Shown here one piece after another: positions 28,221-55,045 of a stretch of DNA of 55,048 nucleotides. The notes beneath the pieces were generated by a model. It was not told the origin of the DNA and did not search any database. It saw only the letters and a program-made list of their open reading frames with translations. The position numbers and the translations under genes are program-made. The first letter of the stretch is position 1. Each line of letters begins with the position of its first letter. The stretch is taken from contig DYFM01000009.1 in assembly GCA_020725175.1 (NCBI GenBank), forward strand, positions 1-55,048, written 5' to 3'. Source of the stretch: Candidatus Paceibacter sp. GTDB taxonomy: Bacteria; Patescibacteriota; Patescibacteriia; Magasanikbacterales; UBA922.

Positions 28221-28274
28221 AATATCTATATCAATATCCATCTTAATCTTAATCTTAATCTTAATCTTTACCTT
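28221..28274. repeat. Hexamer array (AATCTT)x4 perfect with degenerate flanking units
   Basis: Read directly; lies between two dehydrogenase genes. Confidence 0.85.
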
Positions 28275-29652
28275 AGTGTTTCAATAAAGGACTCCCCACC
28301 GCAATAACAGCACATCCAGCAGCCACCAAATCATCATACCGATGTTGCAGCATGCGTCTTCCATCCATAACCAATGGTCGGGACTTCTCTCCCAAAATCA
28401 TATCGGCCACACCCCGAAACTGTGGCCAGTCAGTTGCCACAACTACACAATCAGCAGTGACAATGGCTTCCATTTCATGCCCCACATACTGAATAGTTTC
28501 ATTTGCCGGAAAAAGAGCCTCAAACATCTCTCGCGCTGATGGATCGTAAATACGGATTGCTTCAACTTGCTTTTCTTGCAAAAATCGAACAATATCAATA
28601 CTCGGTGAATTTCGAATATCATTGGTATCCCGCTTGAACGCAGTTCCTAGCAGGGCAATAGTTTTTCCTTTCCAGTCAAATTTCGCTTCTTTTTCCGCAC
28701 GAGATAAAAACAGTTCCAGTTGTCGCTTGTTCGCCAAGTAGGTTTCATTGACCAGTACCGCCTCCTGCCCCTTGGTTTGAAGTTGGTGAGAAAGAGAGCG
28801 CGCGTCTTTGATAAAACAACTCCCGCCGGCATAGAGGCTGTTGTAAAATCCCCAACTCCCGATTCGGTTATCACTCGTTAAAATACGACGAATATGCTCA
28901 AATCTCACCTCCGGAAATGTTTCGCAGGTACGGCCAATTACATCGTAACACACCGCCAGTTTATTGAACAAATAATAATTGGCAAGGAGTTTTCCGGCTG
29001 CGGCTTCTTTGGGATTGACTTCGATGTATTCCACATTCGGGGAATCATAAAACCGTTGATAAATGCGACGCATAACCAAAAAATCGTCTTCATTCCAAGC
29101 TCCTACTACGATACGATCCGGTTTCAGAGAACCCTGAATCGCTTTTCCTTCAACCAAAAATTCCGGATTGGAAACCACTCCTACATTTTGTACAGCATGT
29201 TTTTTAAGTATTGTCTCAGTAAGATCTACCGTATCGATCGGCACAGTGCTTTTATTGATGATAACCAACCGCTTTGACTGAGTGCCTGAGTTTCGCTTGG
29301 TCAAGGCTTCTGACAATTGCTCAAGCGCGGTAGTATAGTAGGTCAAATTACTTTCCCCGGTTTCACCGATTTCTGGGGTTGGGAGACACAAAAATACCGC
29401 ATCACAGGTATCTAAACACTCTTCCACTTTTCGGTAATCTGTGGTAAAGTCAATGCGATCTTGATGGCGAATGAGGAGATCAGCCAGACCGTCTTCGTAG
29501 AGGCAGGATTCTATTTGCTCTCTATTTTTTGAAGACAGTTTCTGTATTTTAACTTGATCAATATCGAATACGAGAGCCTGATGACCACTGTCGGCTGATA
29601 CGGCAGCAGAACAGGAGCCGACGAAGCCGGCGCCTATGTAGAGAAGGTGCAT
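28273..29652 (-). CDS. UDP-glucose/GDP-mannose family 6-dehydrogenase
   Basis: IGAGFVG, CLPTP, NKSTVP, SNPEFLVEG, GGSCFIKD and AFKRDTNDIRNSP motifs. Confidence 0.92.
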   Translation of the reverse strand: MHLLYIGAGFVGSCSAAVSADSGHQALVFDIDQVKIQKLSSKNREQIESCLYEDGLADLLIRHQDRIDFTTDYRKVEECLDTCDAVFLCLPTPEIGETGESNLTYYTTALEQLSEALTKRNSGTQSKRLVIINKSTVPIDTVDLTETILKKHAVQNVGVVSNPEFLVEGKAIQGSLKPDRIVVGAWNEDDFLVMRRIYQRFYDSPNVEYIEVNPKEAAAGKLLANYYLFNKLAVCYDVIGRTCETFPEVRFEHIRRILTSDNRIGSWGFYNSLYAGGSCFIKDARSLSHQLQTKGQEAVLVNETYLANKRQLELFLSRAEKEAKFDWKGKTIALLGTAFKRDTNDIRNSPSIDIVRFLQEKQVEAIRIYDPSAREMFEALFPANETIQYVGHEMEAIVTADCVVVATDWPQFRGVADMILGEKSRPLVMDGRRMLQHRYDDLVAAGCAVIAVGSPLLKH

Positions 29653-29658
29653 AAGAAA

Positions 29659-30744
29659 TTACAATTTACTCAAAATGTAGTTTAACTGTTCGCCCATTTT
29701 TTTGCAAGTATAAATTTCACAAACTTTTTTGTACCCTCTAATCGCAACTTGACTTCTTAATATGGTATTATCAGCAAGTAATTTTATTTTACTACTCAAA
29801 TCTTCGGGGTTTTCTGGCTCATAATAAAGACACTCTTTACCATCTTCAAACAATTCATACATAGTTTGTGCTCCTGAAATAATTACAGGTCGCGCACAAG
29901 CCATTGCTTGGGTTGCAGAACTTAAACCCGAAGACTCATTCTTTACAGCAATACTTGGAATAACAACAATTTTGGCTTTATTATACATCTCTCTAACTTC
30001 CTCATTTGTTAGGTCAGAAAGTATTTCAATATTTTTACCCTGAGTATCTACACTTTTTTTTGTAATTACCTTTAAATGCATGCCTGTAGGTAGTGCAGTA
30101 ACTAGTGTAGCAAAATCACGATTCATGTCATTACCAATAGAAAGAATGAAGTCTTCTTTCGCAATACCTTCTATCGGCTTCCAAAACTCAGTATCTACAC
30201 CGAAGTAAAGTGTTTGTACTTTTTTTTTATTTAAATGATAGTCATGAACAAAATCAGACTGAACATATTCAGAAAGAGTCAGCAATGTATCAGCGCGACG
30301 AAGTAAAAAACCCATAAACCATACAAGAGGGTAATTCCATCGAAAATACTTAATCCGTTCTTGAAGACTCATTACGATACAGGACATTTTTTTTTGTTTG
30401 AGAAAACCTACCGCTTTCCAAAACAAGAGCGAAAGGCTTATTTGATCATTCACACAGACAATAATATCAGCAGAATCAATCTCTTTTTTATAAAGTAAAT
30501 ATATTTCTAGTGGAAGACCAATTTTTGCAAAGAAACGGAACGGGTATTCAAGAACCGAAAATAATCGCCGAATACCCGTCTTCCTTTCATCTCGCGGTGC
30601 ATTTACATAAGTAATATCATAAAGTGATGGGTCTAGATAATTCATACCCCACAGGAATTCTGTTGGACCCACAGTTTTTCCATTATCTAGGAGGATATCG
30701 TTAAGTGCATTAAATCGATAAACAAAAAGTACTTTTTTTTTCAT
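29659..30744 (-). CDS. Glycosyltransferase family 4 (GT-B)
   Basis: FGVDTEFW; SSATQAMACARPVI; C-terminal PENPEDL. Confidence 0.85.
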   Translation of the reverse strand: MKKKVLFVYRFNALNDILLDNGKTVGPTEFLWGMNYLDPSLYDITYVNAPRDERKTGIRRLFSVLEYPFRFFAKIGLPLEIYLLYKKEIDSADIIVCVNDQISLSLLFWKAVGFLKQKKMSCIVMSLQERIKYFRWNYPLVWFMGFLLRRADTLLTLSEYVQSDFVHDYHLNKKKVQTLYFGVDTEFWKPIEGIAKEDFILSIGNDMNRDFATLVTALPTGMHLKVITKKSVDTQGKNIEILSDLTNEEVREMYNKAKIVVIPSIAVKNESSGLSSATQAMACARPVIISGAQTMYELFEDGKECLYYEPENPEDLSSKIKLLADNTILRSQVAIRGYKKVCEIYTCKKMGEQLNYILSKL

Positions 30745-30745
30745 A

Positions 30746-32506
30746 TCATGTAAGATTTATCAAAGCCTGATTTTTTTTAAACCAATAAGCAAAAACAAGA
30801 CAACGCCAGAGTAGAGAAACATTTTTTTGGTTTTTTTGATAATCTGTTATTATGTACAGTAATTTTTTTTTATTAAACCACGGAAGAGAACCTAATACAG
30901 AATAGACTTCAGAGATAGTATCAGGAGTAAATAGCTGATGCGTCGGTCTACCAAACCCCTTCTTTGGCCGAAAAATAACTGTAGTTGGTAATTTACCAAC
31001 CATTGCTCGTTTCAATAGTAGCTTACCAAAACCAAAAAAATAATGCTGTCTTACTGCACTAGACAAAACCATATTTATAAACGGTCGATAGAGAAAGGGG
31101 GTTCTTACCTCAAGAGAGGCCATCATACTGGTAATATCACTTTTTCTCAAATAATATTCTGGTAGTGAGTATTCTAAATCAAACTGACGAAGATCAAGCA
31201 ATTTTTCTACAGGGTTATTTGTATTGTTAAAGATATATTTCGCACTAACTTGACTAGAGTCTATGGATAACAACTGATTTACTAACGATTCATCATATGC
31301 AAAATATTTTTGTAACACGAGGCTGCTTTGATTATCATTTTTAAAAAAGAAATTTCTTCGTCTCATCCAATCAATTTGTCGATATATAGGATAACCAAAA
31401 AACAACTCATCTCCGCCATCACCACCTAAAGATACTTTGACGTCTCGAACTACTTCTTTTGATACTAGAAAATTTGAAATCATTGCTGGATCTGCAAATG
31501 GTTCATCTATATATGACAAAACCTCTTCTGCAGCATTGCTATACTCCTTGAGATCTATCCACACCTCACGATGGTCTGTCCCAAGCTTCTTTGCCACTTG
31601 TCTAGCATGGATAATATCTGGATCATCTGGTTTATGAATAAAACCAACAGTAAATGTCTTCACATCATTACGGATTTGTTTCATTGCCCATACGATTGAA
31701 CTTGAATCAAGACCACCACTCAAGAAAGCACCCACAGGCACATCACTAACCATATGAGACTTAACAGTGTCGATAAGATGCGAGCGAAACAATTTAGGTG
31801 TCAACAGACGTGTATCTTTATCAAATTGTTTTGCACTCCAATACCTGACCGGTACATCATCCAGTATGTTATTATTATTTTTCAGTTTAATAGTCAAATG
31901 ATGTCCAGCGGGTAATTTTTTTATATCCTCAAATATAGTTGCTGGAGCAGGGATATGCTTAAGACAAAAAAAATCATAAATACTCTGTTGATCAATCGTT
32001 AATTGTGTTCCCAACAATGGAAGTAAAGATTTTATTTCAGAAGCAAAATAGAATTGATCACTAATATAGGCATAGACTAAAGGCTTCATCCCTATAGGAT
32101 CACGAGCTAAAAAAAGTAGTTGATCTTTTTTATCATAAATAGCAAAAGCAAACATACCTTCAATATAATCAACCAGCTTCTCTCCATATACAGAATATGC
32201 CGCTATAATAACCTCTGTATCAGAATTAGTAATAAAATTATAGTGATCCGAAAGAGAAGATCTTAATGTTTTATAATTATAAATTTCACCGTTAAATACA
32301 ATTACAAAACGTCCACATGAAGATGTCATAGGCTGATGTCCTGTCGCCATATCAATAATGGACAATCTCCGGTGACCAAGGGTACACAAAAAATCAGAAA
32401 AAATACCACTATCATCTGGCCCTCTTTTTTTGAGCTCCTCTAACCCTTTTTGAAATTCCTCCCTAGAAAAAAAGGTCAATCCAAATGTCCCAAGAATACC
32501 GCACAT
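30746..32506 (-). CDS. asnB: Asparagine synthase (glutamine-hydrolysing)-type amidotransferase, probably glycan amidation
   Basis: N-terminal MCGI, RGPD, HRRLSIID, FNGEIYNY, FLSGGLDSS, GDGGDELF and RPKKGF motifs. Confidence 0.92.
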   Translation of the reverse strand: MCGILGTFGLTFFSREEFQKGLEELKKRGPDDSGIFSDFLCTLGHRRLSIIDMATGHQPMTSSCGRFVIVFNGEIYNYKTLRSSLSDHYNFITNSDTEVIIAAYSVYGEKLVDYIEGMFAFAIYDKKDQLLFLARDPIGMKPLVYAYISDQFYFASEIKSLLPLLGTQLTIDQQSIYDFFCLKHIPAPATIFEDIKKLPAGHHLTIKLKNNNNILDDVPVRYWSAKQFDKDTRLLTPKLFRSHLIDTVKSHMVSDVPVGAFLSGGLDSSSIVWAMKQIRNDVKTFTVGFIHKPDDPDIIHARQVAKKLGTDHREVWIDLKEYSNAAEEVLSYIDEPFADPAMISNFLVSKEVVRDVKVSLGGDGGDELFFGYPIYRQIDWMRRRNFFFKNDNQSSLVLQKYFAYDESLVNQLLSIDSSQVSAKYIFNNTNNPVEKLLDLRQFDLEYSLPEYYLRKSDITSMMASLEVRTPFLYRPFINMVLSSAVRQHYFFGFGKLLLKRAMVGKLPTTVIFRPKKGFGRPTHQLFTPDTISEVYSVLGSLPWFNKKKLLYIITDYQKNQKNVSLLWRCLVFAYWFKKNQALINLT

Positions 32507-33358: not shown

Positions 33359-34252
33359 TTACTTTCTAAATGGATTTCTATACTCTAGTTGCCACATATC
33401 TTCTTGTGTAGAATATACAAATACTCTATACATATATCTCTTCAAAAGAGGCATCCGCATATACATTGAATGAGGAATCCACATAAATAAAGGATAAAGC
33501 GACTTGAGAATTTTATAAAAAATAGCAAACGCTTTTTCTATTACAGTCACATTATTTTGAAACCGCTCAAGGTAAAAATGATTCGGTGTAAGAAACAAAT
33601 CATTATCTGAAACGCTTTTACTTTGTTTTCCTACTCGAAATGCGCCAAGAGGAGTTTCCAAATGATAATGCTTTGTATAATGAAAAAATCTTGTCCATAA
33701 TTCTGTATCAAATGCCCATTTTTTTTCGCCTTCAAGCTTCCCTCCTACATCCTCCCAAAGCTCTTTTCGCCAAAAGGTTGATTCTTGCTGAATGATTTTC
33801 CAATCACCAAGAAGATAATCATAACGATGCTTTAAACGAAGTTTTGAATTTACAATTTCTGATCGCGCATTTATCGTTGTAGCCATTCCTGTAATCCATG
33901 AAACTTCTTTCGGCTGATGAGAAAAAAAATGGCCAATCACAAATAAACTCTTTGGCAAAAGGATATCATCACTACTAATCCATCCCATAATATCTCCTGT
34001 TGTTTTTTTAAATCCATAATTGAGCGCAATGGTTGGTGTATCTCTATAACCTTCCATACGCTCACAGTAGGTAATTTTATCTTTATATTGTTGAATCACG
34101 TCCCAACTTCCATCAGTACTTCCATCATCTATAACAACATACTCAAGATTTGGATATCCTTGAGAGATAATGGACTCTATCGTATCAGCAATATACTGTT
34201 TATGGTTATAACAGACTGTAACAATAGATATTTTTGGAAATTTAATATCCAT
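33359..34252 (-). CDS. Glycosyltransferase family 2
   Basis: ISIVTVCYN, VIDDGSTDGS, WISSDD and QQESTFWR motifs. Confidence 0.9.
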   Translation of the reverse strand: MDIKFPKISIVTVCYNHKQYIADTIESIISQGYPNLEYVVIDDGSTDGSWDVIQQYKDKITYCERMEGYRDTPTIALNYGFKKTTGDIMGWISSDDILLPKSLFVIGHFFSHQPKEVSWITGMATTINARSEIVNSKLRLKHRYDYLLGDWKIIQQESTFWRKELWEDVGGKLEGEKKWAFDTELWTRFFHYTKHYHLETPLGAFRVGKQSKSVSDNDLFLTPNHFYLERFQNNVTVIEKAFAIFYKILKSLYPLFMWIPHSMYMRMPLLKRYMYRVFVYSTQEDMWQLEYRNPFRK

Positions 34253-34275: not shown

Positions 34276-35097
34276 TCATTCTTTTATTGCTGTTATACAC
34301 AGATGCCATCCAAAGACCTTTTCTAATACTCTAAATATTAAGTTAGGCATAAATCTAAAATACCATACTTTTTTATACTTATATTCTTTATACTCAGGTA
34401 TTGAATATGGAAATATATGATCCACAAAAATATTCTTAATTTTGAATCCCCTTAATAAATTTTTTGCGTCTTTCTTACTATAATAATATGTAACAGGAGA
34501 ACCAACTTGTGCTTCAGAATATTTTGGTACTAACTCTTTAATTCTCCAAAATTGAAACTTTCCATATCTCATTATTATCCATAATATTTTCCAAGAAAAT
34601 TTATAATAAACCATGATTTTGAGTGTACCCCCTGGTTTTAAATACTTGTGTAATTCACCTATTACCCTCTCTGGATTTGGAGTATGATGTATCACACCAA
34701 AAGAATAAATAAGATCATATTTCTCAGTTGGAACAGTACTTGATAATTCTTCTGCATTTACACAATAAAATGTAACTTTATTTTCAAAATTAAATATTCT
34801 AGCACGTTCTTTTGCTATTTTTAAAGATTCTTCTGAAAGATCTACTGCTGTAACAGTTGCCCCTTTCTTTAAAAAATTTATTGTATCTGTCCCAATTCCA
34901 CATCCAATTTCAAGAACTTTTTTATTAGACCATTTATCAAATTCAGCGAACATTGGTATATGTGATTCAACAAAATATTTTCTTTTTTCTACCTCATCAA
35001 AATATTCTACTGTCCCAATATTTTTATTTGAATGTCGAATGTTACAAGGTCTGATATTCCAATATTTTCTTACATCTTCTATACTCTTATTTTGCAT
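34276..35097 (-). CDS. Class I SAM-dependent methyltransferase
   Basis: VLEIGCGIG, AVDLSEESL, YDLIYSFGVIHHTP and LKPGG motifs. Confidence 0.9.
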   Translation of the reverse strand: MQNKSIEDVRKYWNIRPCNIRHSNKNIGTVEYFDEVEKRKYFVESHIPMFAEFDKWSNKKVLEIGCGIGTDTINFLKKGATVTAVDLSEESLKIAKERARIFNFENKVTFYCVNAEELSSTVPTEKYDLIYSFGVIHHTPNPERVIGELHKYLKPGGTLKIMVYYKFSWKILWIIMRYGKFQFWRIKELVPKYSEAQVGSPVTYYYSKKDAKNLLRGFKIKNIFVDHIFPYSIPEYKEYKYKKVWYFRFMPNLIFRVLEKVFGWHLCITAIKE

Positions 35098-35154: not shown

Positions 35155-36459
35155 CTAGCTATATTGACCAAAGGTTAGATAATCTATACCTAATGGAATA
35201 TTCTTAACATCTAACTGCCTCCAAGGATCAATAATAATTTTTAGGGAAGTATTTGAATGCATTTCTTGAATATATTGAGAAAGCCCCATATTCCCTAAAA
35301 ACAATACAGTAGCCTCTTTCACACAACCAAGTGCCGTTTCATGATATATGACAGTATCTTTCAATATAGCTTTTACATGATCATTTCCATCTGGGTTACA
35401 TACATGCACAGTATATCCTTCTTTTACCAAACGATCCGTTATCAAAACAGGATGAGATTCCTCTGCAAAATACGTCCCCGGCTTGTAACTTAAACTCAGC
35501 ATTGCAATACGATCGGCTTTTGAAGCAATCGAAGTAATTTTTTTAACACTTCTTTCAATTATAGACCTATTGTATTCATCTGTTTTTTCTGCAAATGGTA
35601 CCTTTACACCTCTTCTCTCAGCCATATAGGCAAAGGCTCTATTATCCCGTGGAAAACATGGACCACCAAATCCAAGTCCCCCTCGCAAATAATATTTCCC
35701 TACACGCTTATCACTTCCTATTGCTTCCGTTACATGATCAATATGTACACCTGGAATATGCTCAGCTACTTCAGTAAGCATGTTTGCAAATGTAATCTTC
35801 ATCGTAAGAAATGAGTTAAGACTTATCTTGGTAAGTTCTGCACTAGAGATACTCATACGACGGACAGGCGCATTATTATCTGACACAGTCGCATAAAAAG
35901 ATTCAAGCAAGTCACCAGATTTTTTATCAGATTCTCCTATCAAGAAAAAATCTGGATGCAATAAATCATATACCACGGATCCAATTGCAATAAATTCTGG
36001 ACTATAGCAAAATCCAAAATCTTCTCCACATATCTTTCCAGAGTATTTCTCCAGTATTGGTATTACTTTTTCCTGACAATCTCCTGGGAGAAGGGTACTT
36101 GTAAGTACAACTACATGATAGGACGACTTTTTTTGTAACTCTCTTCCTATATTTTCACATACGGCTTCAACATATTTTGCTGTAAATCCACCAGTTTCAT
36201 CAGTAGGTGTAGGAACAATAATAAATGTTATATCACTTTGTTGAATTGCTACACTATACTCAGTGGTAGCACGAAACATCTCTTTTCCTTTCTGAATATA
36301 TTCATCCAAATCTTTTTCTTTTACTGGGGCCTCACCTGCATTAATTTTATCTACAAATTCTTTTTGTATATCTACACCAACCACAGTATGACCCTTACTT
36401 GCATATACAACGGCCATACATGATCCGAGTTTTCCTAAACCGATAACTGATATGTTCAT
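35155..36459 (-). CDS. UDP-glucose/GDP-mannose family nucleotide-sugar dehydrogenase
   Basis: IGLGKLG, IVPTP, YSPEFIAIG and GFGGPCFPRD motifs. Confidence 0.92.
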   Translation of the reverse strand: MNISVIGLGKLGSCMAVVYASKGHTVVGVDIQKEFVDKINAGEAPVKEKDLDEYIQKGKEMFRATTEYSVAIQQSDITFIIVPTPTDETGGFTAKYVEAVCENIGRELQKKSSYHVVVLTSTLLPGDCQEKVIPILEKYSGKICGEDFGFCYSPEFIAIGSVVYDLLHPDFFLIGESDKKSGDLLESFYATVSDNNAPVRRMSISSAELTKISLNSFLTMKITFANMLTEVAEHIPGVHIDHVTEAIGSDKRVGKYYLRGGLGFGGPCFPRDNRAFAYMAERRGVKVPFAEKTDEYNRSIIERSVKKITSIASKADRIAMLSLSYKPGTYFAEESHPVLITDRLVKEGYTVHVCNPDGNDHVKAILKDTVIYHETALGCVKEATVLFLGNMGLSQYIQEMHSNTSLKIIIDPWRQLDVKNIPLGIDYLTFGQYS

Positions 36460-37569: not shown

Positions 37570-38497
37570 TTTCTATATACCACATGTAGTAATGCCTCAG
37601 GGCATCTTCATAACGGTCCTGCGGTTCCCATCCCAACAATTGTTTTGCTTTTTCTATTTGAACAATCCTTCCTGTGTAGTTACCAGCTCTTTCTCGGTGT
37701 ATTTCATATTCAATTCGCCGTCCCATAATTTTTTCAAGGGTGGTAATAATGTCCACTATTCGTATTTTTTCCATACCATTGATGTTAAAAATATGGTTTT
37801 TACCTTCTTCTTTAAGGCATGCGATACATCCGTTCACAAGATCCTTCACATATATAAACTGTCGGAAATTATTTTCATCACCGTCGACAGTAATTTTTTC
37901 GTTTTTTAATGCTTTGGAAATAAAAATAGGGGTTACTGTCTGCGGGCGAGCACGTTCACCAAATGGAATACCAAAACGAATAATCGTGTAATCGACACCA
38001 TACAGTTTTTGGTAATTTATCAAATACAACTCAGACGCGAGTTTCGATGAGGTGTAGATATGATCTGGAGCATTCGGGTAGAGTTGCGTTTCTTCATTCA
38101 CAAGAAGTTCTTTTGCACCTTGATATACCCATTCTGTTGAAGCAAACAATACTCTTTGTATACCATTTACACGCGCAGCTTCCAAGACATTGATGGTACC
38201 AATTGTATTAAGTATCGTAGATTCCCTTGGAGCATTGTGATAAAAATTTACATTTGCCTCCGCCGCTAAATGGTATATCGCATCCACCCCCTCTGTTTCT
38301 TTGATAAGCAATGGGAGATTGAGTACGTCTCCCTGTATATATCTATACGAATTGTGATAAACAGGATCTTTTATATCGTATATATACGTATCATAACCCT
38401 GTTCGATGAGGGCATCAACTAAATGTGACCCTATAAATCCGGATCCTCCGGTAACCAGTATTTTTTTACATGTCATACTATTATTTATGAACTCCAC
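37553..38497 (-). CDS. NAD-dependent epimerase/dehydratase (SDR)
   Basis: ILVTGGSGFIG, YTSSK and RFGIPFG motifs. The start may be the later MTCKK. Confidence 0.9.
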   Translation of the reverse strand: MEFINNSMTCKKILVTGGSGFIGSHLVDALIEQGYDTYIYDIKDPVYHNSYRYIQGDVLNLPLLIKETEGVDAIYHLAAEANVNFYHNAPRESTILNTIGTINVLEAARVNGIQRVLFASTEWVYQGAKELLVNEETQLYPNAPDHIYTSSKLASELYLINYQKLYGVDYTIIRFGIPFGERARPQTVTPIFISKALKNEKITVDGDENNFRQFIYVKDLVNGCIACLKEEGKNHIFNINGMEKIRIVDIITTLEKIMGRRIEYEIHRERAGNYTGRIVQIEKAKQLLGWEPQDRYEDALRHYYMWYIENENKV

Positions 38498-39954
38498 AAG
38501 ATACCTTTTGCGTCGCTTGCAAAAATATTTTGGTCATTATAATGCGAAGCATTTTCAATGTCGTTCGCTTTAAATTCATCTAATGTTGCTGTATAAAGGT
38601 TTTCTAAAATAATTGGAACTGTTTCCTTTGTTTTAACATGAAGCTGAGACCTTATTTTTTGAAATGAAACCTTATAGTCGCGTTGATCAACCGTATTCTC
38701 CACAATTTCAAGCTCAACCGGTAATCCTTTTTGTTGTAAAAATTTCACTATCATTTCTCCCAAATCCTGTATTTGGTAATTTTCCTGCTCATCTCCCACA
38801 TTATATATTTGTCTTTTTACAGTATCAATATCAGCTTGCAAGGCAGCAATATATGCTTTAGCAGCGTCTCCAACAGATAACAATGGGCGCCACTGTTTTC
38901 CACCAAAAACAGTAATTTTATTCTGCGTAATTCCTTTCATCACCATGGTGTTCACCACAAGATCATACCGCATTCTATAGGAAGGACCATATAAGGTAGA
39001 CATTCTCATAATAGTTGGTGCAAAATTTGGCGAGGAAATACTCAATATCGCTTGTTCAGCATTAATTTTTGTGCGAGCATAATGAGAAACAGGATTGAGT
39101 GGTGCACACTCATCCAAAGCATGGCTTGTACCACTCTGACCATACACTGAACAGGTTGAGGCAAAGAGAAAACGATTAATATTGAGATATGCACATGTTT
39201 CGGCAATCATTTGTGCAGATAAATAGTTTACCTCAAAAGTAGACATAGGATACCTGCTAGATGCAGGATCACCTACTACCGCTCCAAGCAGCACAACAGC
39301 ATCCATATGTTCTAAGGCTCTGGTAATATCCGATATACTCCGCATGTCACCCTCGTATATCTCTAGCGAATCAGAATACTCCTGGTTTTCCATTTGAAGT
39401 TTTTGAATGGGAGTATGTCCAAACACAAACGTATCAAAAATCCGTACACGATATCCCTGTCTGAGAAGCTTCTCACTCAGCACGGTTCCAAGATATCCTC
39501 CCCCACCAATTACACACACATTTCGCACAGCTTGATTACTTTTTATATCCCAGACTGGAGCAATCTGTCGTTGTTGCCCTGCCCGTGTTAATGTCTCTAA
39601 ATTACTAACCTGTACAATGTGCATTTGATTATTGCATACAGGTACCAAATCTTCTTGTTTCAATGCAAAAGTTGACCGTAAATAATCAAGTTTATTTTTT
39701 AATTCAAATTCGTTTTCAATCTCCGTTTCTATCAAAAATGGAACAGTTCTATTCATTGCTTTTTCCACCTTTTCCGAGATAGGTATACCATTTTGTACAC
39801 ATGTACGTAAATCTGTTTTTGTAATTTTTCCACATATATGTGCTTGTTGATCTGTAACAAACAAAGTATCCGTTTTTTGTTGGTCCATTTGAGAAAAGAC
39901 AGAATCTATTGTATCTGAATATAGGCAGATAATTTTTTTTTGTTCTTCATTCAT
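38485..39954 (-). CDS. SDR epimerase/dehydratase fused to an N-terminal CBS-like region
   Basis: C-terminal VIGGGGYLG...YARTK...RYDLVVN. The N-terminal ~120 aa LFVTD..ICGKITKTDLR..AMNR resemble a CBS pair. Confidence 0.82.
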   Translation of the reverse strand: MNEEQKKIICLYSDTIDSVFSQMDQQKTDTLFVTDQQAHICGKITKTDLRTCVQNGIPISEKVEKAMNRTVPFLIETEIENEFELKNKLDYLRSTFALKQEDLVPVCNNQMHIVQVSNLETLTRAGQQRQIAPVWDIKSNQAVRNVCVIGGGGYLGTVLSEKLLRQGYRVRIFDTFVFGHTPIQKLQMENQEYSDSLEIYEGDMRSISDITRALEHMDAVVLLGAVVGDPASSRYPMSTFEVNYLSAQMIAETCAYLNINRFLFASTCSVYGQSGTSHALDECAPLNPVSHYARTKINAEQAILSISSPNFAPTIMRMSTLYGPSYRMRYDLVVNTMVMKGITQNKITVFGGKQWRPLLSVGDAAKAYIAALQADIDTVKRQIYNVGDEQENYQIQDLGEMIVKFLQQKGLPVELEIVENTVDQRDYKVSFQKIRSQLHVKTKETVPIILENLYTATLDEFKANDIENASHYNDQNIFASDAKGILWSS

Positions 39955-41913: not shown

Positions 41914-42690
41914 CTAAATCCTTCTAAGGAAATTTTGAGAATTTAAAAAAAATACGACATCATCCTGAACCCCAATGAGAATGATAAGGTAACCATTATT
42001 TTTTTCCTTAGAATCGTCAACCATATAAAAAGGAACAAAAAAGGTATATTGCTTATCCTTCTTAATATACTGATGGATGAAATTAAAATCTAAATTTTCT
42101 CTTCTATATCCTAATGGGTTATTCGAAAAATCAAAAATAACGTCATATTGAAAATTATTATCTCCAGGGACTTTAAAATCATCAACAATAATTACAGCCT
42201 TATCAAAATTTTCTGTTATACTTTTTAACTCACGTGACAGAGGAGAATCTTCAGCCCACTTGTAATGTGCATCTAAATAAAATAGAGGGTAACCCCCAAA
42301 TTTTTCAAAATACTTTGGCAATTCACTCCCAGAATCTCCATAAACAAGTGTTACATCTCTACCGCCTAAATTTTTTTGAGCCAGTTCATAAAGTTTCCTC
42401 TTTTTTTCAAAACTATAAATTGGCCCTGCGTAGTTTTCCCTAACATATAAAGTACTTCTTCCCAAAAACGTGCCAGTCTCCACAAATGAAGTAATCTTTT
42501 GTTTAAATAAATATGACAAAACTTCTTTTAAATGTTTATCGCCATGAAAAGATTTACTTTGATCCTGAGACATGTAGGAAGTTATATCTTTTTCTATATC
42601 TTTCTTCTTACGAAAGAATTTAAACCTAACAGTTAATTCAAATTGTATCTTGCTAATTAACTTATTAACAATTTCTATTTTCATATACAA
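41914..42690 (-). CDS. Putative SAM-dependent methyltransferase-like protein
   Basis: FVETGTFLG, LVYGDSG, LFYLDAH and IIVDDF motifs. Confidence 0.7.
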   Translation of the reverse strand: MYMKIEIVNKLISKIQFELTVRFKFFRKKKDIEKDITSYMSQDQSKSFHGDKHLKEVLSYLFKQKITSFVETGTFLGRSTLYVRENYAGPIYSFEKKRKLYELAQKNLGGRDVTLVYGDSGSELPKYFEKFGGYPLFYLDAHYKWAEDSPLSRELKSITENFDKAVIIVDDFKVPGDNNFQYDVIFDFSNNPLGYRRENLDFNFIHQYIKKDKQYTFFVPFYMVDDSKEKNNGYLIILIGVQDDVVFFLNSQNFLRRI

Positions 42691-42739: not shown

Positions 42740-43843
42740 CTATAATAAACTGGCTATTTCAACCAAAGATTGTAGACCGAGCTCCTTACGTGAAATAGCA
42801 ATACCTATAGACCCCTTTGTTCTTTTCCAAACAGATGCTGGACTAGACATCTGAGCAATCAATACATCCACAACCTCTTGTGTTGCATACGGACTATCAA
42901 TCAATGAAGCATCAACATGAACTTGATTCGAAACCGTTAAATCCAATCCTTGTGCTGCGGCATGACAAATAATAGCATCAAGATGAGGATATTGTACACC
43001 ACGAAAGGCATCTGTGTCACCTCCCTCTTGATCATCTAAAGAAGTATGAACCTCAAGTCCATCCGTAGGCTTTGCCCCCAGCGTACGATCTGGTACTCCC
43101 AAAGCATATGCAATAGATGGTAACTCCAACCCTTTGAGAATGTTTTGAATAGGACCAAAGGCACCTACGTCCCCCATAAGGGTCCAAAAAGCCATATACA
43201 GCTCAGATAAGTTATCCGTTGAGACTACGTATCCCCCACGCTTTGTCGTACCAAAAAAGTTCACAATCATTCGAATGCGTGCTTTTATATTCCCTAACCC
43301 ACGTCGCCACTCTTCTTCAGTAAAAGTAAGAGATTGACCAACTGGTTCAACCGATTGTTTCAATGCATGAAATGCTTCATCTAGTCCTTTTATTGTAATA
43401 TGTTTCAATCCAAATGCTTCAGCCGTTTCTTCTGCTCTGTTATTATGTTCCGGATTACTTGCTATCGGCATTCCATAAGAAATAACTTCAAATGAGGCAC
43501 CAAGTTCCTTAGCAAGCTTCTGAGCTCGGGAGTATAAAGCACATATTGTTGCGCTATCCAATCCACCAGAATTACCAAAAAATACTTGCCTCATTTGGTT
43601 TATATGATGATATCTAAGAATTTCAACCACCGCACAAAAAACAATTCTTCCAATATCTTGTACGGTAAGATAATATGAATATTTGTGCGCGTAATATTTA
43701 AATGAAGTTAAAATATTTGGGTCAAAAGTTTTTAATGTAAAAAACTCTCCCCAAAAAAACTGTTCTTCAGGTGTATATTGTTGCCAGTTTTCAATACCAG
43801 AAAACGATAAATCAATAGTTGAAAGAATTTGCTTCGTTTGCAT
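42740..43843 (-). CDS. nadE: NH3-dependent NAD+ synthetase-like protein
   Basis: SGGLDSA PP-loop, GNIKARIRM, STDNLSE..WTLMGD, A.ALGVP and KPTDGL motifs. The actual substrate is uncertain. Confidence 0.8.
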   Translation of the reverse strand: MQTKQILSTIDLSFSGIENWQQYTPEEQFFWGEFFTLKTFDPNILTSFKYYAHKYSYYLTVQDIGRIVFCAVVEILRYHHINQMRQVFFGNSGGLDSATICALYSRAQKLAKELGASFEVISYGMPIASNPEHNNRAEETAEAFGLKHITIKGLDEAFHALKQSVEPVGQSLTFTEEEWRRGLGNIKARIRMIVNFFGTTKRGGYVVSTDNLSELYMAFWTLMGDVGAFGPIQNILKGLELPSIAYALGVPDRTLGAKPTDGLEVHTSLDDQEGGDTDAFRGVQYPHLDAIICHAAAQGLDLTVSNQVHVDASLIDSPYATQEVVDVLIAQMSSPASVWKRTKGSIGIAISRKELGLQSLVEIASLL

Positions 43844-43845
43844 AA

Positions 43846-44445
43846 TTATCTTTTGTCAATTTTTTGTGCTTTAATAAAATAAGACTTTGGTTTCAATTCA
43901 TGACCCCACCACTTAATAGAAATATGCTCGCAACCTTCTCGAAGTAACTCTTCCCACCCCTGTCTTGTTATTCTCCAATAATCTCCATATGTTTCACCAT
44001 GAAGTTCTTTGTCAAATGGACAGCTGAACAATAAATAACCACCCGGCTTGAGGGCAAATAGCATTTGCTCAATCGCCATAAAAGGATTTGCAACGTGCTC
44101 AATAACATCCGTGCAAATAATGCCGTCAAATTCATTAGTTTTAAAGAATTTAGACAATTCGTATATATCACCAACCACATCAACGTTCGAATGTGGAAAC
44201 TTATCAAAAGAAATGACATCACATCCCTTACTTACCAACATTTCCTTAGTCCATGTCCAATCGCCACTACCAACATCCAATATTTTTCCTTTTATCTGGT
44301 GAAAATTCTCTTCCAAAAAAAATTTTAGTTCCACTCTATATCCACCGAAATCCACCTTGGCTTTGTCACGATCCAATATTGAAATGGTATAATCGATAAC
44401 ACGATTACCACCTCGAAGAAACTTAATCCATAATTGTTTCATCAT
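43846..44445 (-). CDS. Class I SAM-dependent methyltransferase (type 11-like)
   Basis: ILDVGSG, FDGIICTDVIEHV, LKPGG and DYWR motifs. Confidence 0.88.
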   Translation of the reverse strand: MMKQLWIKFLRGGNRVIDYTISILDRDKAKVDFGGYRVELKFFLEENFHQIKGKILDVGSGDWTWTKEMLVSKGCDVISFDKFPHSNVDVVGDIYELSKFFKTNEFDGIICTDVIEHVANPFMAIEQMLFALKPGGYLLFSCPFDKELHGETYGDYWRITRQGWEELLREGCEHISIKWWGHELKPKSYFIKAQKIDKR

Positions 44446-44451
44446 AAAAAA

Positions 44452-45162
44452 TTATTGAAGGAAATAATCATGAATATCCTCATACGTTTGCTTCTTTTTT
44501 GTAGCAATAAACAGAAGCCACGGTCCAAGTAATTTAATTTCTAGCACGGTAACATGTTTTCGAAGAAAATGATATAATCGATCAACATCAAAATACGTAA
44601 CATGTTCACTTATCACGATCTTATTCTCAAATGGCACTGAAATAATGAGATAACCATCATCTTTCATACACCGAACCATTTCTTTAATAGCCTCTTTCCA
44701 TTTACGAGTATGCTCCAACGTCTCAAATGATGTAATAATATCAAATTTTTTTTCTGTCAAAAAAATATTCGGCAGTTCGCGTTGATATGCATCTATACCT
44801 ACTTCTTTAGCCATTGCTACGGCCGCATGAGAAATATCTATTCCCACCCTTTCTATAGCCTCAGGAATTTGGCTCAAAAAAATTCCTCTACCACATCCCA
44901 CATCCAATACTTTCTTCCCTGAAAAATCAATTGTCTTTAGTAGTTCTAGCACCTTATCTTCAAAACGCCCAATTGGAGATGTGGCTTCCTTTGCATGAAT
45001 TCTTGACCAGTATGCTTCATTGTTAATATTTCCTATTGTATAAAACTTGGCAAATAAAAAAATTTTTGAAGCATACTTATAAGTAAATTTATTTAAAAAA
45101 GGTTTACGTAACAAATGAAGTCCAAACCTTTTCATTTTATCAAACAATTTAGTCATAATCAA
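44452..45162 (-). CDS. Class I SAM-dependent methyltransferase
   Basis: VLDVGCGRG, GIDIS, FDIITSFETLEH and IISVP motifs. Confidence 0.9.
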   Translation of the reverse strand: MIMTKLFDKMKRFGLHLLRKPFLNKFTYKYASKIFLFAKFYTIGNINNEAYWSRIHAKEATSPIGRFEDKVLELLKTIDFSGKKVLDVGCGRGIFLSQIPEAIERVGIDISHAAVAMAKEVGIDAYQRELPNIFLTEKKFDIITSFETLEHTRKWKEAIKEMVRCMKDDGYLIISVPFENKIVISEHVTYFDVDRLYHFLRKHVTVLEIKLLGPWLLFIATKKKQTYEDIHDYFLQ

Positions 45163-47657: not shown

Positions 47658-47903
47658 TTACCAATCACGAGTTCTTTGTTGTATCGTTTTTTTTATGCGC
47701 CGGTATGCGGTTGTGGCCCCCTTGTCAAACTCAGGCGATACAAGTGCAAGTAATTCATGACCTAAAATACGATATTGCCCTCCGACTTTATTAGCACGAA
47801 TAAGCCCTTGCTTAAGCAAGCGCTTTATTGTGCTATTACTCACCTTCAACAGCTCCTGCGCTTCAGCAGTAGTATATACTTCATTTGACTTAATTTCTGC
47901 CAT
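47658..47903 (-). CDS. Excisionase-like (MerR/HTH_17-type) small DNA-binding protein
   Basis: YTTAEAQELLKVSNSTIKRLLKQGLIRANKVGGQYRI pattern. Confidence 0.85.
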   Translation of the reverse strand: MAEIKSNEVYTTAEAQELLKVSNSTIKRLLKQGLIRANKVGGQYRILGHELLALVSPEFDKGATTAYRRIKKTIQQRTRDW

Positions 47904-47930
47904 ATCTATATAAAAAAGCTATTTCAATAG

Positions 47931-47960
47931 TATCAAAAAGTGTCAATAGGTGTCAATAGA
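47931..47960. promoter_or_regulatory. Three 10-bp direct repeats upstream of HTH copy 1 (putative operator)
   Basis: TATCAAAAAG TGTCAATAGG TGTCAATAGA; a homologous triplet lies at 52870-52899. Confidence 0.6.
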
Positions 47961-47962
47961 CT

Positions 47963-49066
47963 CTATGCTGTGAATTCTTTAAAACCCATATTTTCGTCAA
48001 AATGTAATACTTGAGCGATGAGACTTATCCCCCATAAAAAAAGTGTCGTTCCGTGGATATCCGGTTCAGATAAACCACGAGAAACTGGAGCATGATAATA
48101 TAATCTATTTGCTCTTTCTTTGTGAAAAGAAAATCCACCTTTCTCTTTATAATAATACTGCTTATATGTTTCTAATCTCTGTAACATAAATGTACAAATA
48201 TCATCATATCTATAGGAAGACTGTACTATTTCATTGCAGTATTTTAAAACATATACGATATTAAAATTATCACATGCATGCGCATCATGTTGCTTCAGCA
48301 AACAAAAGTCAATGATTTTTTTTGCTTTATCAAACATAACGCTATCAACGACCTTAAGTCCAGTAATAATTTTCATTGCTCCATTTATCTTTTCTTGTGC
48401 AGATACAGAGCTACCCTTGTACCAAAAACCATCAGATTGTTGCATATGATGTATCCAATCTATTACAACTGTAATCAGTTCATCATTATCAAACTGTGCA
48501 TGCTTCAAAAAGAAAAGAAGATGGCTCACATGGCTTCCCGCATGCCATGGCTTACTCCAATCGAGCCGTTCAAGATATTCATGAACTTCTTTTTTTGATT
48601 TTTGAATATCTTTTAGTGAATAATCAAATTTTGGAGTATGAAGCAATACAGCAGAAATTGCTTGCCTTGTTTCTGCACGTTTTATTTCGTTGTAGTATAA
48701 TGGTGAAAGTGATCTCGCTTGAACCCCTTTTATTGTACGAATAGGAAAAGATACGTACGCCAGGAATCGATCATACACATATCCATCTTTTTTTTGAAAA
48801 GATTGTATATATGAGATAGCATCCGAAATTTCCTTTGTATATTGTGCTTCAAGATCAAGCGTATATACAATTTTTAAAAAAAAACTTGCATTCCCAAGCC
48901 CCCATTTTATGTGTTCTCCAAAATAATCACCCGATAAAGAATAATGATAAAATCCTGCTCTTTTCTTTCCTTTTAAAAATGACAAAAAATGAGGAACATT
49001 GTTCTTTACATAAAAAAGCCAATCATATATATCCTGATTTACTTTATTTTCTGAATGATGTGACAT
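47963..49066 (-). CDS. Hypothetical protein, possible alpha/alpha-toroid (prenyltransferase-repeat-like) fold
   Basis: Repeated Q.K/S.DG.(V/F/W)Y motifs, LDWSKPWHAGSH, PDIHGT. The start is uncertain (49066 or 49087). Confidence 0.6.
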   Translation of the reverse strand: MSHHSENKVNQDIYDWLFYVKNNVPHFLSFLKGKKRAGFYHYSLSGDYFGEHIKWGLGNASFFLKIVYTLDLEAQYTKEISDAISYIQSFQKKDGYVYDRFLAYVSFPIRTIKGVQARSLSPLYYNEIKRAETRQAISAVLLHTPKFDYSLKDIQKSKKEVHEYLERLDWSKPWHAGSHVSHLLFFLKHAQFDNDELITVVIDWIHHMQQSDGFWYKGSSVSAQEKINGAMKIITGLKVVDSVMFDKAKKIIDFCLLKQHDAHACDNFNIVYVLKYCNEIVQSSYRYDDICTFMLQRLETYKQYYYKEKGGFSFHKERANRLYYHAPVSRGLSEPDIHGTTLFLWGISLIAQVLHFDENMGFKEFTA

Positions 49067-50076
49067 ATTTTTGACTTGATTTTCCATGCCAGTGAAGATG
49101 TCATTAATGAGAGTACATCTTTGCATGTAGGTACTGTGTGTGTTTCTGCACTTTTTTGCCTATCGGTAAAAATAGTATGAGCAAACGTATAGTACTGTTT
49201 TGCTATATCCTGTAATGTTTGAACCGATATAGCGGATTGGTACTTCTGATACTGTGAAGCAACATTCTCTATCTTCTGTAAAATATCATCTTTGGAATCA
49301 AACACTTCACCTGCATGCTGCATAAGCTCAGGATGTCCACCATCATTCAAAACTACCACAGGTAACCCACAATGAAGTGCTTCCAAAAGAGAATTGGAAC
49401 ATGGATCAGACTGTGATGCCGTAACATATATATCAGCCTGCTTCAATTGCTCCGCGAGATCTTCGCTCGACATGGGTGAGAGCATACGAATATGTTTGAA
49501 ATTAATTGGTGAATTTCCAATAAATGTCATGCCATATCTTGAAAAATCTAAATGAGAATCAAGATATTGATATATCTCAAATCCCTTCCTCATATTTGAT
49601 GACCAGCTTGTAGCAATCAGGCGAATCTTTCCATCTTTTTTATATTCATTTTTATTTTTTCTGTTAAAGACGTGTGGATTCGGTGCATTTACAATAACCG
49701 CTTCATATTTAGAAGATGGCATCCCCATGCGAATATTTTGCTCTTTACTCCATTGAGATTGAAAAATAGTCCCTTCTGAATATACGGCATTTATCTTGTA
49801 GATAAGATGATCTATCTCTTTATCTTTATCTCTTATAATAGAAATCGGACCATCTATACGATGAAGAATAATTTTTCCACGCCGTTTCAAAGAAAAAAGT
49901 TTTCGTATTCTCCATTCTTCTCCAAAAGGAAAACTATTGAATAAAATTACATCTGCTTTTTCAACATCTTCTTCATACACATTCGTTTGCTGGAATTCAT
50001 TTCTAAGCGCCTTTAAAAACTGATTTCCACCACCCCATGGTCCTTCTTTTATACCGAAAAAAATATGGATTTTCAT
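49039..50076 (-). CDS. Glycosyltransferase family 4
   Basis: WGGGNQF, RKGFE, SDPCSNSLLEALHCGLPVV and GGHPEL motifs. Confidence 0.88.
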   Translation of the reverse strand: MKIHIFFGIKEGPWGGGNQFLKALRNEFQQTNVYEEDVEKADVILFNSFPFGEEWRIRKLFSLKRRGKIILHRIDGPISIIRDKDKEIDHLIYKINAVYSEGTIFQSQWSKEQNIRMGMPSSKYEAVIVNAPNPHVFNRKNKNEYKKDGKIRLIATSWSSNMRKGFEIYQYLDSHLDFSRYGMTFIGNSPINFKHIRMLSPMSSEDLAEQLKQADIYVTASQSDPCSNSLLEALHCGLPVVVLNDGGHPELMQHAGEVFDSKDDILQKIENVASQYQKYQSAISVQTLQDIAKQYYTFAHTIFTDRQKSAETHTVPTCKDVLSLMTSSLAWKIKSKICHIIQKIK

Positions 50077-53957: not shown

Positions 53958-55045
53958 CTTAGATCCTAGAATCTAACGCAACAGCGTTAGGAATTAATTA
54001 ATTGATTAAAGATTTCATACGGAGTATGATAGCCTAAAATTTTTCTCGGTCGTCCATTTAACTGGTGCTGTGCTCTTTTTATCTGATATCTCGAAACTTT
54101 GTTAAAATCAGTGCCTTTGGGAAAATATTGTCGAACGAGTCCATTGGTGTTTTCATTTGTCCCCCGTTCCCACGGACTTCTCGGGTGAGCAAAGTAAACT
54201 TTAACTCCAGTAATGTCGGTAAACAGTTTGTGACTGGCCATTTCCCGTCCTTGATCATAGGTCATGGTGAGTCGCATTTGTTTAGGAAGTTTCTTTACTT
54301 CTTTAGCAAAGGCTTTGGCCACTACATCCGCACTTCTGTTTTTAATCGGGATGAGAATAGTCGTTCGGGTCGTGCGCTCTACCAGAGTGCCAAGAGCTGA
54401 ACGATTGTTCTTTCCAACAATGAGGTCACCCTCCCAATGTCCGGGTATGATTCGATCTTCTATGTCTTTCGGTCGCTCTTCAATACTGAGCATATCTTCA
54501 AGTTTTCGCTTTGCTTCCACGCCACGACGTTGTTTGTGTCGACGTTTTCTATTTTGCCGAAGACAAGAAAGAAGCTCTTTTTTGAGAGTACCTTTCGGTA
54601 AAACAAATAGATAGCTGTAGATGGATTCGGGAGATATTCGCATAGTCATATCCTGAGGATACTCCATTTTCAGAGTTTCGGCAATCTGGGTTGGTGACCA
54701 TTTGAGACGAAGTTTGCGATATACGTACCGTTTCAGCCGGATATGCTCATCCAAGAGGTATTTGCCAAGCTTTCGTTTGCGGCTGTTTCTCCAGGCTCTA
54801 GCGTGAGCTCTTTTGGCTCGATAGGTATATTTGTTACAGCTTCCAGCTCGAACCTCTCGACTAATGGTACTGACTGATCGTTTCAATGATTTTGCAATAT
54901 ATTGAAAAGAACAATGTTGAGCGAGCATCCGACTGATTTCCTCCCGCTCCTCTTCACTTAAACGTGTGTATTTATTCATATGAATCCAACGTATCATCTA
55001 TGGCACTTCGTGCCAAGACTGTTGCGTTAGATTCTGGAGTGAAAC
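53958..55045 (-). mobile_element. IS30-family insertion sequence
   Basis: Perfect 17-bp inverted core AGAATCTAACGCAACAG at 53968-53984 and 55019-55035, ending in AACGCAACAG as IS30 ends do. Outer ends are estimated assuming ~27-bp IRs. Confidence 0.9.
53987..54997 (-). CDS. IS30-family DDE transposase
   Basis: HTH (RSVSTISRE), GHWEGDLIVG, TYDQGREM and PWERGTNENTNGLVRQYFPKG motifs. The start is probably MNKYTRL at 54979. Confidence 0.96.
   Translation of the reverse strand: MIRWIHMNKYTRLSEEEREEISRMLAQHCSFQYIAKSLKRSVSTISREVRAGSCNKYTYRAKRAHARAWRNSRKRKLGKYLLDEHIRLKRYVYRKLRLKWSPTQIAETLKMEYPQDMTMRISPESIYSYLFVLPKGTLKKELLSCLRQNRKRRHKQRRGVEAKRKLEDMLSIEERPKDIEDRIIPGHWEGDLIVGKNNRSALGTLVERTTRTTILIPIKNRSADVVAKAFAKEVKKLPKQMRLTMTYDQGREMASHKLFTDITGVKVYFAHPRSPWERGTNENTNGLVRQYFPKGTDFNKVSRYQIKRAQHQLNGRPRKILGYHTPYEIFNQLINS

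Follow-up and report, generated by a model that had tools for sequence, protein, structure and literature searches.

A NadE-family enzyme in a conserved glycan cassette of Candidate Phyla Radiation bacteria and its probable role in the amidation of nucleotide-linked uronates

The window analyzed here, a stretch of 55,048 nucleotides from Candidatus Paceibacter sp. (contig DYFM01000009.1 of assembly GCA_020725175.1), harbors a gene for a protein related to the NAD synthetase NadE (P0001; Table 1). The host genome (G000) has a size of 1.24 Mb and is 98% complete, and its relatives carry the label Candidatus Magasanikbacteria, which marks the host as a member of the Candidate Phyla Radiation/Patescibacteria. 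Between approximately 24.3 and 53.9 kb the window consists of one co-oriented glycan cluster on the minus strand, to which the gene belongs. The cluster encodes at least seven short-chain dehydrogenase/reductase (SDR)-type proteins or epimerases, a GDP-mannose 4,6-dehydratase, a DegT aminotransferase, glycosyltransferases of families 1 and 2 (GT1 and GT2), at least five methyltransferases, a flippase and an AsnB amidotransferase. In addition, three open reading frames (ORFs) of the UDPG/GDP-Man dehydrogenase family were found on the minus strand, two of which, UGDH_a and UGDH_b, are listed in Table 1, while the third lies at 26869-27852. The original prediction, made from the sequence, had described an operon with an AsnB-type protein, three dehydrogenases and several SDRs, and this composition was confirmed, with the third dehydrogenase ORF being incomplete at its N-terminus. 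Likewise, the proposed spacing of 2 nt to the upstream methyltransferase gene is exact, as its TAA stop codon occupies 43848-43846 and the ATG of the NadE-like gene 43843-43841.

P0001 belongs to the NadE/NAD synthase superfamily (PF02540), as is demonstrated by its fold and its catalytic residues. The Pfam profile matched residues 80-309 (81 bits, E 1e-22), and the TIGR00552 domain model reached 78.9 bits, above its cut-off of 63.65. All equivalog models of full-length NAD synthases were missed (NF010587: 74.9 of 255 bits required; NF001979: 50.5 of 250; NF010588: 51 of 479). In an AlphaFold 2 model built from 100 homologues with a confidence (pLDDT) of 95.8, residues 56-344 superposed on entire single-domain NAD synthetases, with 1xng giving a Z-score of 27.4 and a root mean square deviation (rmsd) of 2.1 Å over 245 aa. 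The residues that serve ATP and Mg in canonical NadE are invariant (S92GGxD96S97, N185, R189, R191, T209, E214, T221, D225, K237, D276, Y285 and K340), and D52, N136, R140, R142, T160, E165, T172, D176, K189, D223 and K261 of E. coli NadE are identical in P0001 and invariant throughout the family. The NadE-like motifs of the original prediction were therefore borne out by profile, fold and retained ATP/Mg residues.

When compared to the ammonia-dependent NadE proteins (EC 6.3.1.5; H. pylori 1xng, B. subtilis 1nsy, E. coli 1wxe), P0001 has a common fold (Z 21-27, rmsd ~2.1-2.7 Å) and is alike in the PP-loop, the Mg/ATP residues, the motifs GN.KAR.RM and T..GD, the C-terminal aromatic-K-R and the single-domain architecture lacking a glutaminase. 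It differs by an identity of 20-28%, ~55 extra N-terminal residues, a 6-residue insertion in the lid, the sequence WTLMGDVG.A in place of FTKYGDGG.D, and its location in a glycan cassette of hosts without nicotinic acid adenine dinucleotide (NaAD) synthesis. The nicotinamide mononucleotide (NMN) synthetase of Francisella tularensis (3fiu) is a further structural neighbour (Z 26.4, rmsd 1.8 Å over 231 aa). We take 3fiu to be a NadE variant that acts on nicotinic acid mononucleotide (NaMN) and hence a precedent for a changed carboxylate substrate, although one that is still a pyridine nucleotide in NAD synthesis. Two other assignments were rejected. The Asn_synthase profile (PF00733) gave just 23 bits over residues 92-153, which is the PP-loop, and a GATase domain was not present; without a class II glutaminase and a full Asn_synthase domain, P0001 is not an AsnB-type uronate amidotransferase. 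An N-acetyl-sugar amidotransferase of the WbuX/PseA/LfnA type was dismissed as well, since TIGR03573 was absent from the NCBIfam matches at E≤1.

To place P0001 within its family, a word-indexed search, an exhaustive search and a tree were used. The first of these recovered ~31 proteins of ~365 aa with 56-65% identity to P0001, after which identity fell to 35% or less. Among 1.84 billion representatives searched exhaustively, a single cluster exceeded 50% identity, followed by matches of 34-42%. In the tree, the P0001 clade is monophyletic (SH-aLRT support 100), with a shallow crown on a stem that measures 1.09 substitutions per site, and it nests in a clade of single-domain proteins of the GFWT type, apart from the canonical NadE proteins of related genomes of the Candidate Phyla Radiation (CPR). 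The phylogeny suggested in the original prediction thus separates the clade from housekeeping NadE by a long and fully supported stem. Neither 40 close relatives of the host nor 400 genomes sampled evenly from the phylum contained an orthologue. Because the 40 relatives have no orthologue, the NadE-like gene is a patchy accessory gene and not a housekeeping gene.

At 50% identity, the GFWT(L/I)xGDVG clade (P0042-P0189; loci L032, L035 and L036) resolves into at least about 150 clusters, and its neighbours in the ESM Atlas are mostly labelled as tailed phages. A uniform link of this larger clade to glycans was ruled out, as the genes of its members in the CPR families f39 and f121 have a response regulator/ComM or BipA as neighbours and not glycan genes. 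The NadE-like proteins of f39, whose neighbours are the response regulator and the ComM-like gene, carry a SEGLDS variant of the PP-loop.

Three regions differ from canonical single-domain NadE (Table 1). In the alignments, neither the nearest relatives nor canonical NadE have the N-terminal extension, which was modelled at pLDDT >92. The original prediction had put its length at ~80 aa. An extension does exist, and the 80 aa correspond to the stretch preceding the Pfam match, whereas by structure the NadE core begins at about residue 56, from where single-domain NadE structures align. P0001 is thus ~55 aa longer at its N-terminus than the nearest relatives, in which the PP-loop is found near residue 37, and ~45 aa longer there than E. 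coli NadE. Two-domain glutamine-dependent NadE structures align over model residues 8-360, that is from within the extension, and their linker and C-terminal elements superpose on the extension and the C-terminal tail of P0001. Sequence similarity between the extension and the two-domain linker was not found, the overlap being structural only; on the model, the extension might be a relic of such a linker, which we regard as a lead.

The second region is the substrate-site motif AFWTLMGDVG. A column comparison showed G(F/Y)(F/Y)TKYGDGG at this position in canonical single-domain NadE. Against the consensus G(F/Y)(F/Y)TKYGDGG.D, the sequence AFWTLMGDVG.A of P0001 contains the changes K to L, G to V and D to A, and the variant T-L-x-G-D is also found in two-domain glutamine-dependent NAD+ synthetases (NF010588/PRK13981; M. 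tuberculosis, human NADSYN1). The exchange of K for L in the FTK motif was therefore discarded as proof of a new substrate: it is not diagnostic because the ~150-cluster GFWT clade has L too, K recurs sporadically within that clade, and the sequence is TLYGD in two-domain NAD synthases. The third region is the lid, or P2-loop, which was modelled with a lower pLDDT of 84-87, as would fit a mobile loop. A few further substitutions are confined to the P0001 clade.

Subsequently, the gene neighbourhoods of the clade were compared. The loci originate from 4 species-representative genomes (L012-L015), 13 metagenome contigs (3 of which repeat loci of these genomes) and the window, giving 15 distinct loci. 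At every locus with flanking sequence the NadE-like gene was located in the same glycan cluster, so that the closest homologues (56-66% identity) all occur in the glycan cassette and not in housekeeping contexts, which was the neighbourhood check called for in the original prediction. An orthologue of the dehydrogenase UGDH_a (57-62% identity) was detected in 11 of 11 loci with sufficient flank, and an orthologue of the glycosyltransferase GT2_b in 12 loci. In CPR loci the GT2_b orthologues (43-65% identity) adjoin the NadE-type gene or the dehydrogenase gene. The methyltransferase MT_273 has orthologues in most loci of the clade, with 71-74% identity in L013-L015 (Magasanikbacteria/Parcubacteria), and homologues of 56-63% identity in other CPR families; at L012 none was found. 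In L047, L048, L054, L055 and L059, ~8-30 nt separate the NadE-like gene from the dehydrogenase gene directly next to it, and in L047, L048, L056 and L057 it directly adjoins GT2_b. The AsnB gene is not conserved alongside the NadE-like gene in the orthologous loci. The sequence at L012 (CAZFTR010000002.1) is a metagenome-assembled genome of 1.2 Mb labelled 'uncultured Gammaproteobacteria' that contains a CPR-type cassette (49-75% identity); this taxon label is probably wrong.

The best solved relative of UGDH_a is the GDP-mannose 6-dehydrogenase AlgD (1mfz), with 230 bits and an aligned catalytic Cys motif; UDP-glucose dehydrogenases reached 197 bits. The distribution of this dehydrogenase type was determined in a sample of the order (120 genomes and G000, E≤1e-60) and a sample of the phylum (400 genomes and G000, E≤1e-80). 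Six genomes of the order sample contained it, namely G000, three other carriers of the P0001 clade and two of family f7, as did three genomes of the phylum sample, G000 and one each of families f29 and f80. In both samples, every genome with a UGDH_a-type dehydrogenase, from four CPR families in all, has a NadE-family gene in the same cassette, while only 35 of the 401 genomes of the phylum sample including G000 have any NadE-family gene. Homologues of MT_273 and GT2_b join these cassettes, with the exception of G442, which has a different methyltransferase and in which no MT_273 homologue was detected. The NadE slot of the cassette is filled by three architectures: the P0001 clade, two-domain proteins with CN_hydrolase and NAD_synthase domains (f7 and f80), and a single-domain protein of 261 aa (f29). 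In comparison to the two-domain type, P0001 has no CN_hydrolase domain and branches with the single-domain GFWT-type proteins. In G038, a gene at L067:6251-8467 encodes an AlgD-like dehydrogenase fused to an MT_273-type methyltransferase (738 aa), which speaks for the dehydrogenase product being the substrate of the methyltransferase.

The NAD metabolism of the carrier genomes was inspected as well. NadD, NadM, nicotinate phosphoribosyltransferase (NAPRTase), NadA, NadC and NAD kinase were not found in G000. Its sole PF01467 protein has 132 aa and is RfaE-II/TagD-like, its second PP-loop match is MnmA, and the NadE-like gene is its only NadE-family gene. The host can thus not make NaAD. NadD, NadM and NAPRTase were also not found in G041, G038, G442, G104 and G143, the last of which is 100% complete and without any PF01467 protein. 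In total, 6 of 9 carrier genomes (these five and G000) are devoid of any known NaAD-making enzyme. Among the others, G043 encodes a canonical NadE (306.8 bits, cut-off 255) in a nadE-nadM-nadA-nadC operon and has, separately, the NadE-like gene of the glycan cassette.

The pairing of NadE with a dehydrogenase was also observed in annotated genomes of marine myoviruses. A 'NAD synthetase' is encoded beside a 'UDP-glucose dehydrogenase' in glycan islands of the Synechococcus phages S-SSM7, Bellamy, Sf-FS3 and S-SCSM2R and of Pelagibacter phage HTVC008M. The nadE gene lies immediately upstream of the dehydrogenase gene and often overlaps it; Bellamy is the exception, with a methyltransferase gene in between. 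The pairs are surrounded by genes for methyltransferases, carbamoyltransferases and glycosyltransferases, and the Bellamy methyltransferase gp226 is 49% identical to MT_273. In the four phages compared, S-SSM7, Bellamy, Sf-FS3 and HTVC008M, the dehydrogenases are closer to UGDH_a than to UGDH_b. Two genes downstream of its pair, Sf-FS3 has a stand-alone CN_hydrolase gene (L074:6222-7082), which could encode a split glutaminase subunit. Bacillus phage G and Sinorhizobium phage Phosso, in which nadE lies beside genes for NAPRTase and NaMN adenylyltransferase, carry true salvage clusters. The island of S-SSM7 has been described as a lipopolysaccharide cluster of unknown function, and NadE was not discussed (Sullivan et al., 2010, PMC3037559).

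Taken together, the P0001 clade is distinct and its cassette conserved, and we favor the reading that P0001 is a derived single-domain PP-loop ATP pyrophosphatase of the NadE family that was recruited into a glycan cassette of dehydrogenase, NadE-type enzyme, MT_273-type methyltransferase and GT2 glycosyltransferase. Judged from its gene context, its substrate is probably a nucleoside diphosphate (NDP)-uronate, which would be amidated in an ATP- and ammonia-dependent reaction. By oxidation at C6, the dehydrogenase would turn a nucleotide sugar into the uronic acid, a product that, going by the best solved relative, may be GDP-mannuronate-like. The NadE-like enzyme would then adenylate the uronate carboxylate with ATP and Mg, free ammonia would displace AMP to yield an NDP-uronamide, and neighbouring enzymes would methylate this compound and/or transfer it into the surface glycan. 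A purine-NDP uronate such as GDP-mannuronate would resemble NaAD in being a nucleoside diphosphate with a ring-bound carboxylate, which makes the recruitment of a NadE plausible, and its nucleoside-diphosphate handle would fill the subsite for the ADP part of NaAD. The carboxylate, the nucleotide, ammonia as the nucleophile and the order of steps are what we infer for this scheme. Within it, the new extension and the rebuilt lid of the window lineage are best, if not securely, understood as a specialization. The uronate amidation put forward in the original prediction is in this way supported by comparative genomics, that is by homologues in glycan cassettes, co-occurrence with the dehydrogenase and the lack of host NaAD, with the reservation that NaAD activity may be retained, as G042 and G044 suggest (see below).

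A broader form of this proposal can be put forward more tentatively: the NadE-dehydrogenase pair may be an unrecognized, widespread route to NDP-uronamides in CPR bacteria and marine T4-like phages, in which even 'NAD+ synthases' of standard sequence act on an NDP-uronate, perhaps a GDP-mannuronate-like one. Should this apply, the window clade might, with the same caution, be a dedicated and specialized NDP-uronamide synthetase.

Several observations weigh against uronate amidation by P0001. The candidates known for uronamide formation are AsnB-type enzymes, and one of these is encoded in the same cluster. With 695-737 bits (cut-off 479), the cassette NadE proteins of f7 and f80 exceed the threshold of the NCBIfam equivalog for glutamine-dependent NAD+ synthase, and those of the phages are of the canonical GFYTKYGDGG type; neither group carries a signal of a new substrate in its sequence. 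NaAD is contacted in solved NadE structures by aromatic residues that stack against its nicotinate and adenine rings (PMC6946656), and the corresponding positions, mapped by alignment, are still aromatic in the P0001 clade (F219 and W339 of WKR). The inspection of NaAD-binding residues that the original prediction had suggested covered these two aromatic contacts. Finally, canonical nadE is absent from G042 and G044, although both still possess nadC and a nadM-nadA fusion. Among the nadA-positive genomes of family f1 for which context is available, canonical nadE is missing from these two alone; in six others it is adjacent. These losses are a hint that the P0001 clade can still make NAD. A relic of the canonical nadE was identified in G044 (L065:1270-1444; G044:C3), consisting of 25 aa with 80% identity to the G043 enzyme and a degenerate C-terminus with a stop codon. 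It is situated at the syntenic site just upstream of the nadM-nadA fusion, and the only intact NadE-family gene in this genome is the one in the glycan cassette.

That P0001 is a genuine NAD+ synthetase (NaAD + ATP + NH3 to NAD) within a glycan cluster, either as the only NadE of the cell or in support of the NAD-dependent dehydrogenases, would agree with the retained fold and catalytic residues, with its status as the sole NadE-family gene of G000, with the sequence-standard NAD synthases in the cassettes of other lineages and phages, and with the loss of canonical nadE in exactly two carriers of the clade that are positive for nadA, nadC and nadM. We nevertheless consider it unlikely. A known route to NaMN or NaAD is lacking in G000, G041, G038, G442, G104 and G143, G043 maintains a canonical operon besides its cassette gene, and an accessory gene without orthologue in 40 relatives, with a long stem and a clade-specific extension and lid insertion, is not what would be expected of it. 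Moreover, NAD supply does not explain the strict adjacency to one dehydrogenase subtype across CPR bacteria and marine phages, because the dehydrogenase recycles NAD, and it explains this adjacency least in the carriers without NaAD synthesis, whereas a direct substrate-product link would explain the pairing. Local NAD salvage, the other idea of the original prediction, is disfavored on the same grounds: there is no source of NaAD, the dehydrogenase does not consume NAD irreversibly, and the nadE-nadM-nadA-nadC operon of G043 is separate.

An enzyme of dual specificity, which amidates a uronate in the cassette and still turns over NaAD well enough to stand in for canonical NadE in genomes with an NAD pathway, would reconcile the orphan state in G000 and G041 with the independent loss of nadE in G042 and G044, where nadM-nadA-nadC are intact. 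The relic at the syntenic site and the identity of the family motifs in all carriers are in line with it. However, there are just two losses among related genomes, for which simple counting gives a chance of ~0.1 with kin that are not independent, and the NAD pathway of G042 and G044 may be decaying; we regard dual specificity as improbable. An equally low likelihood is assigned to another carboxylate (a lipid-linked or polymer uronate, a pyruvyl or a lactyl group) or another nucleophile (an amine or amino acid). The extension and the rebuilt lid could form a new acceptor site, the cluster encodes many tailoring enzymes including the DegT aminotransferase, and no glutaminase partner is fused to the P0001 clade. 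On the other hand, the tightest and most universal neighbour is a soluble NDP-sugar dehydrogenase, and since the two-domain cassette NadE proteins carry a glutaminase and Sf-FS3 has a separate CN_hydrolase, the transfer of ammonia, i.e. the formation of a primary amide, is indicated.

The proposed amidation of an NDP-uronate by P0001 has parallels in known systems. WbpS of P. aeruginosa is an AsnB-type sugar-uronate amidotransferase. Uronamide formation, known or proposed, is attributed to AsnB-type glutamine amidotransferases with sugar nucleotides as substrates, such as the candidates WbmC, WbmI and WbmZ of Bordetella (PMC2615507). The reaction proposed for the AsnB type is the same as for P0001, namely ATP-dependent adenylation of the C6 carboxylate followed by formation of the uronamide, and both belong to the PP-loop superfamily. 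In contrast to the AsnB type, P0001 has no N-terminal nucleophile (Ntn) glutaminase, and the true AsnB of the window lies with the other dehydrogenase, UGDH_b, the best solved relative of which is the UDP-glucose dehydrogenase 4a7p. In Haloferax volcanii, AglM, AglP and AglG are a UDP-glucose dehydrogenase, an S-adenosylmethionine (SAM)-dependent methyltransferase acting on a hexuronic acid and a GT2 glycosyltransferase. By analogy, the cassette would represent the same triad of dehydrogenase, methyltransferase and GT2, to which the Agl set has no NadE-type counterpart. AglM is the best NCBIfam equivalog match of UGDH_a (271 bits, below the cut-off) and AglG is a weak match of GT2_b, so that the similarity remains far under the equivalog cut-offs. 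A literature search of limited coverage found no paper linking NadE to uronamide or glycan synthesis, and the conserved NadE-dehydrogenase glycan cassette is apparently undescribed.

Table 1. Positions of the NadE-like gene, its protein regions and selected neighbouring genes in the window
Feature	Position	Strand	Basis
NadE-like PP-loop amidoligase gene, ATG start, 367 aa (P0001)	42740..43843	minus	ORF, Pfam, TIGR00552, AlphaFold 2 model
N-terminal extension, residues 1-55, four short helices, clade-specific	43679..43843	minus	alignment, model, structure comparison
PP-loop SGGLDS, S92-S97, ATP pyrophosphatase signature	43553..43570	minus	invariant in 100 aligned sequences and canonical NadE
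Substrate-site motif AFWTLMGDVG, A218-G227	43163..43192	minus	identical in 32/32 family members
Lid (P2-loop), clade-specific 6-residue insertion, invariant H266/G274 (H.SLD..EGGD.DAF)	43001..43054	minus	alignments
AlgD-like NDP-hexose 6-dehydrogenase UGDH_a, obligate partner gene	35155..36459	minus	structure-relative search, synteny
Class I SAM methyltransferase MT_273, cassette member	34276..35097	minus	Pfam
GT2 glycosyltransferase GT2_b, cassette member	33359..34252	minus	Pfam
Two methyltransferase genes directly upstream of the NadE-like gene	43846-44445 and 44452-45162	minus	Pfam
P0192, conserved 258-aa neighbour	41914..42690	minus	no Pfam or NCBIfam match
Second dehydrogenase/amidotransferase set: UGDH_b 28273-29652, GT1 29659-30744, AsnB 30746-32506	28273..32506	minus	Pfam, NCBIfam

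Further genes of the glycan cluster recur in related loci. The methyltransferase MT_236, one of the two encoded upstream of the NadE-like gene, has an orthologue directly upstream in L014 and L052, and in L015 and L050 the NadE-like gene is directly followed by an orthologue of P0192 (46% identity). P0192 may resemble the class I methyltransferase fold, which is a guess from sequence motifs. A small gene of the HTH_17 type (excisionase-like) and a gene for a 387-aa protein of no known family, at 47658-49126, are conserved together in L013-L015 (65-67% and ~46% identity, respectively). The SDR/epimerase at 38485-39954 (489 aa), which is 52-58% identical to proteins of L012 and L050, has ~140 extra N-terminal residues without domain match.

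An acyl carrier protein or ANL ligase domain was not found in any ORF between 24285 and 53938, and the intergenic gaps are too short for an additional gene, except for two of ~360-420 nt. Membership of the NadE-like gene in a carrier-protein cassette of AsnB, acyl carrier protein, ligase and NadE was therefore ruled out, as carrier protein and ligase are both missing from the cluster. The cluster also contains an AbiEii-type toxin gene (25336-26124) and an ORF of 209 aa, possibly the antitoxin (26146-26775). The adjoining dehydrogenase ORF at 26869-27852 is without approximately the first 100 residues of the N-domain, and the AbiEii locus looks like an insertion that cut this gene short. At the upstream border of the cluster, an IS30-like transposase gene (HTH_38 and rve domains) is located at 53987-54997.

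Uronamide modifications neutralize charge at the surface and influence phage and host recognition. If the amidation of an NDP-uronate by P0001 holds true, a second enzymatic route to sugar uronamides, independent of AsnB, would exist, and the NadE family would gain a substrate outside the pyridine nucleotides. The proposal is directly testable, as the cultured phages S-SSM7, Bellamy and HTVC008M carry the NadE-dehydrogenase pair. Under its broader form, many assignments to 'NAD synthesis' in CPR genomes, which are otherwise devoid of this pathway, as well as 'NAD auxiliary metabolic genes' in cyanophages and pelagiphages, would be wrong, and the genomic context in which this applies would be recognizable.

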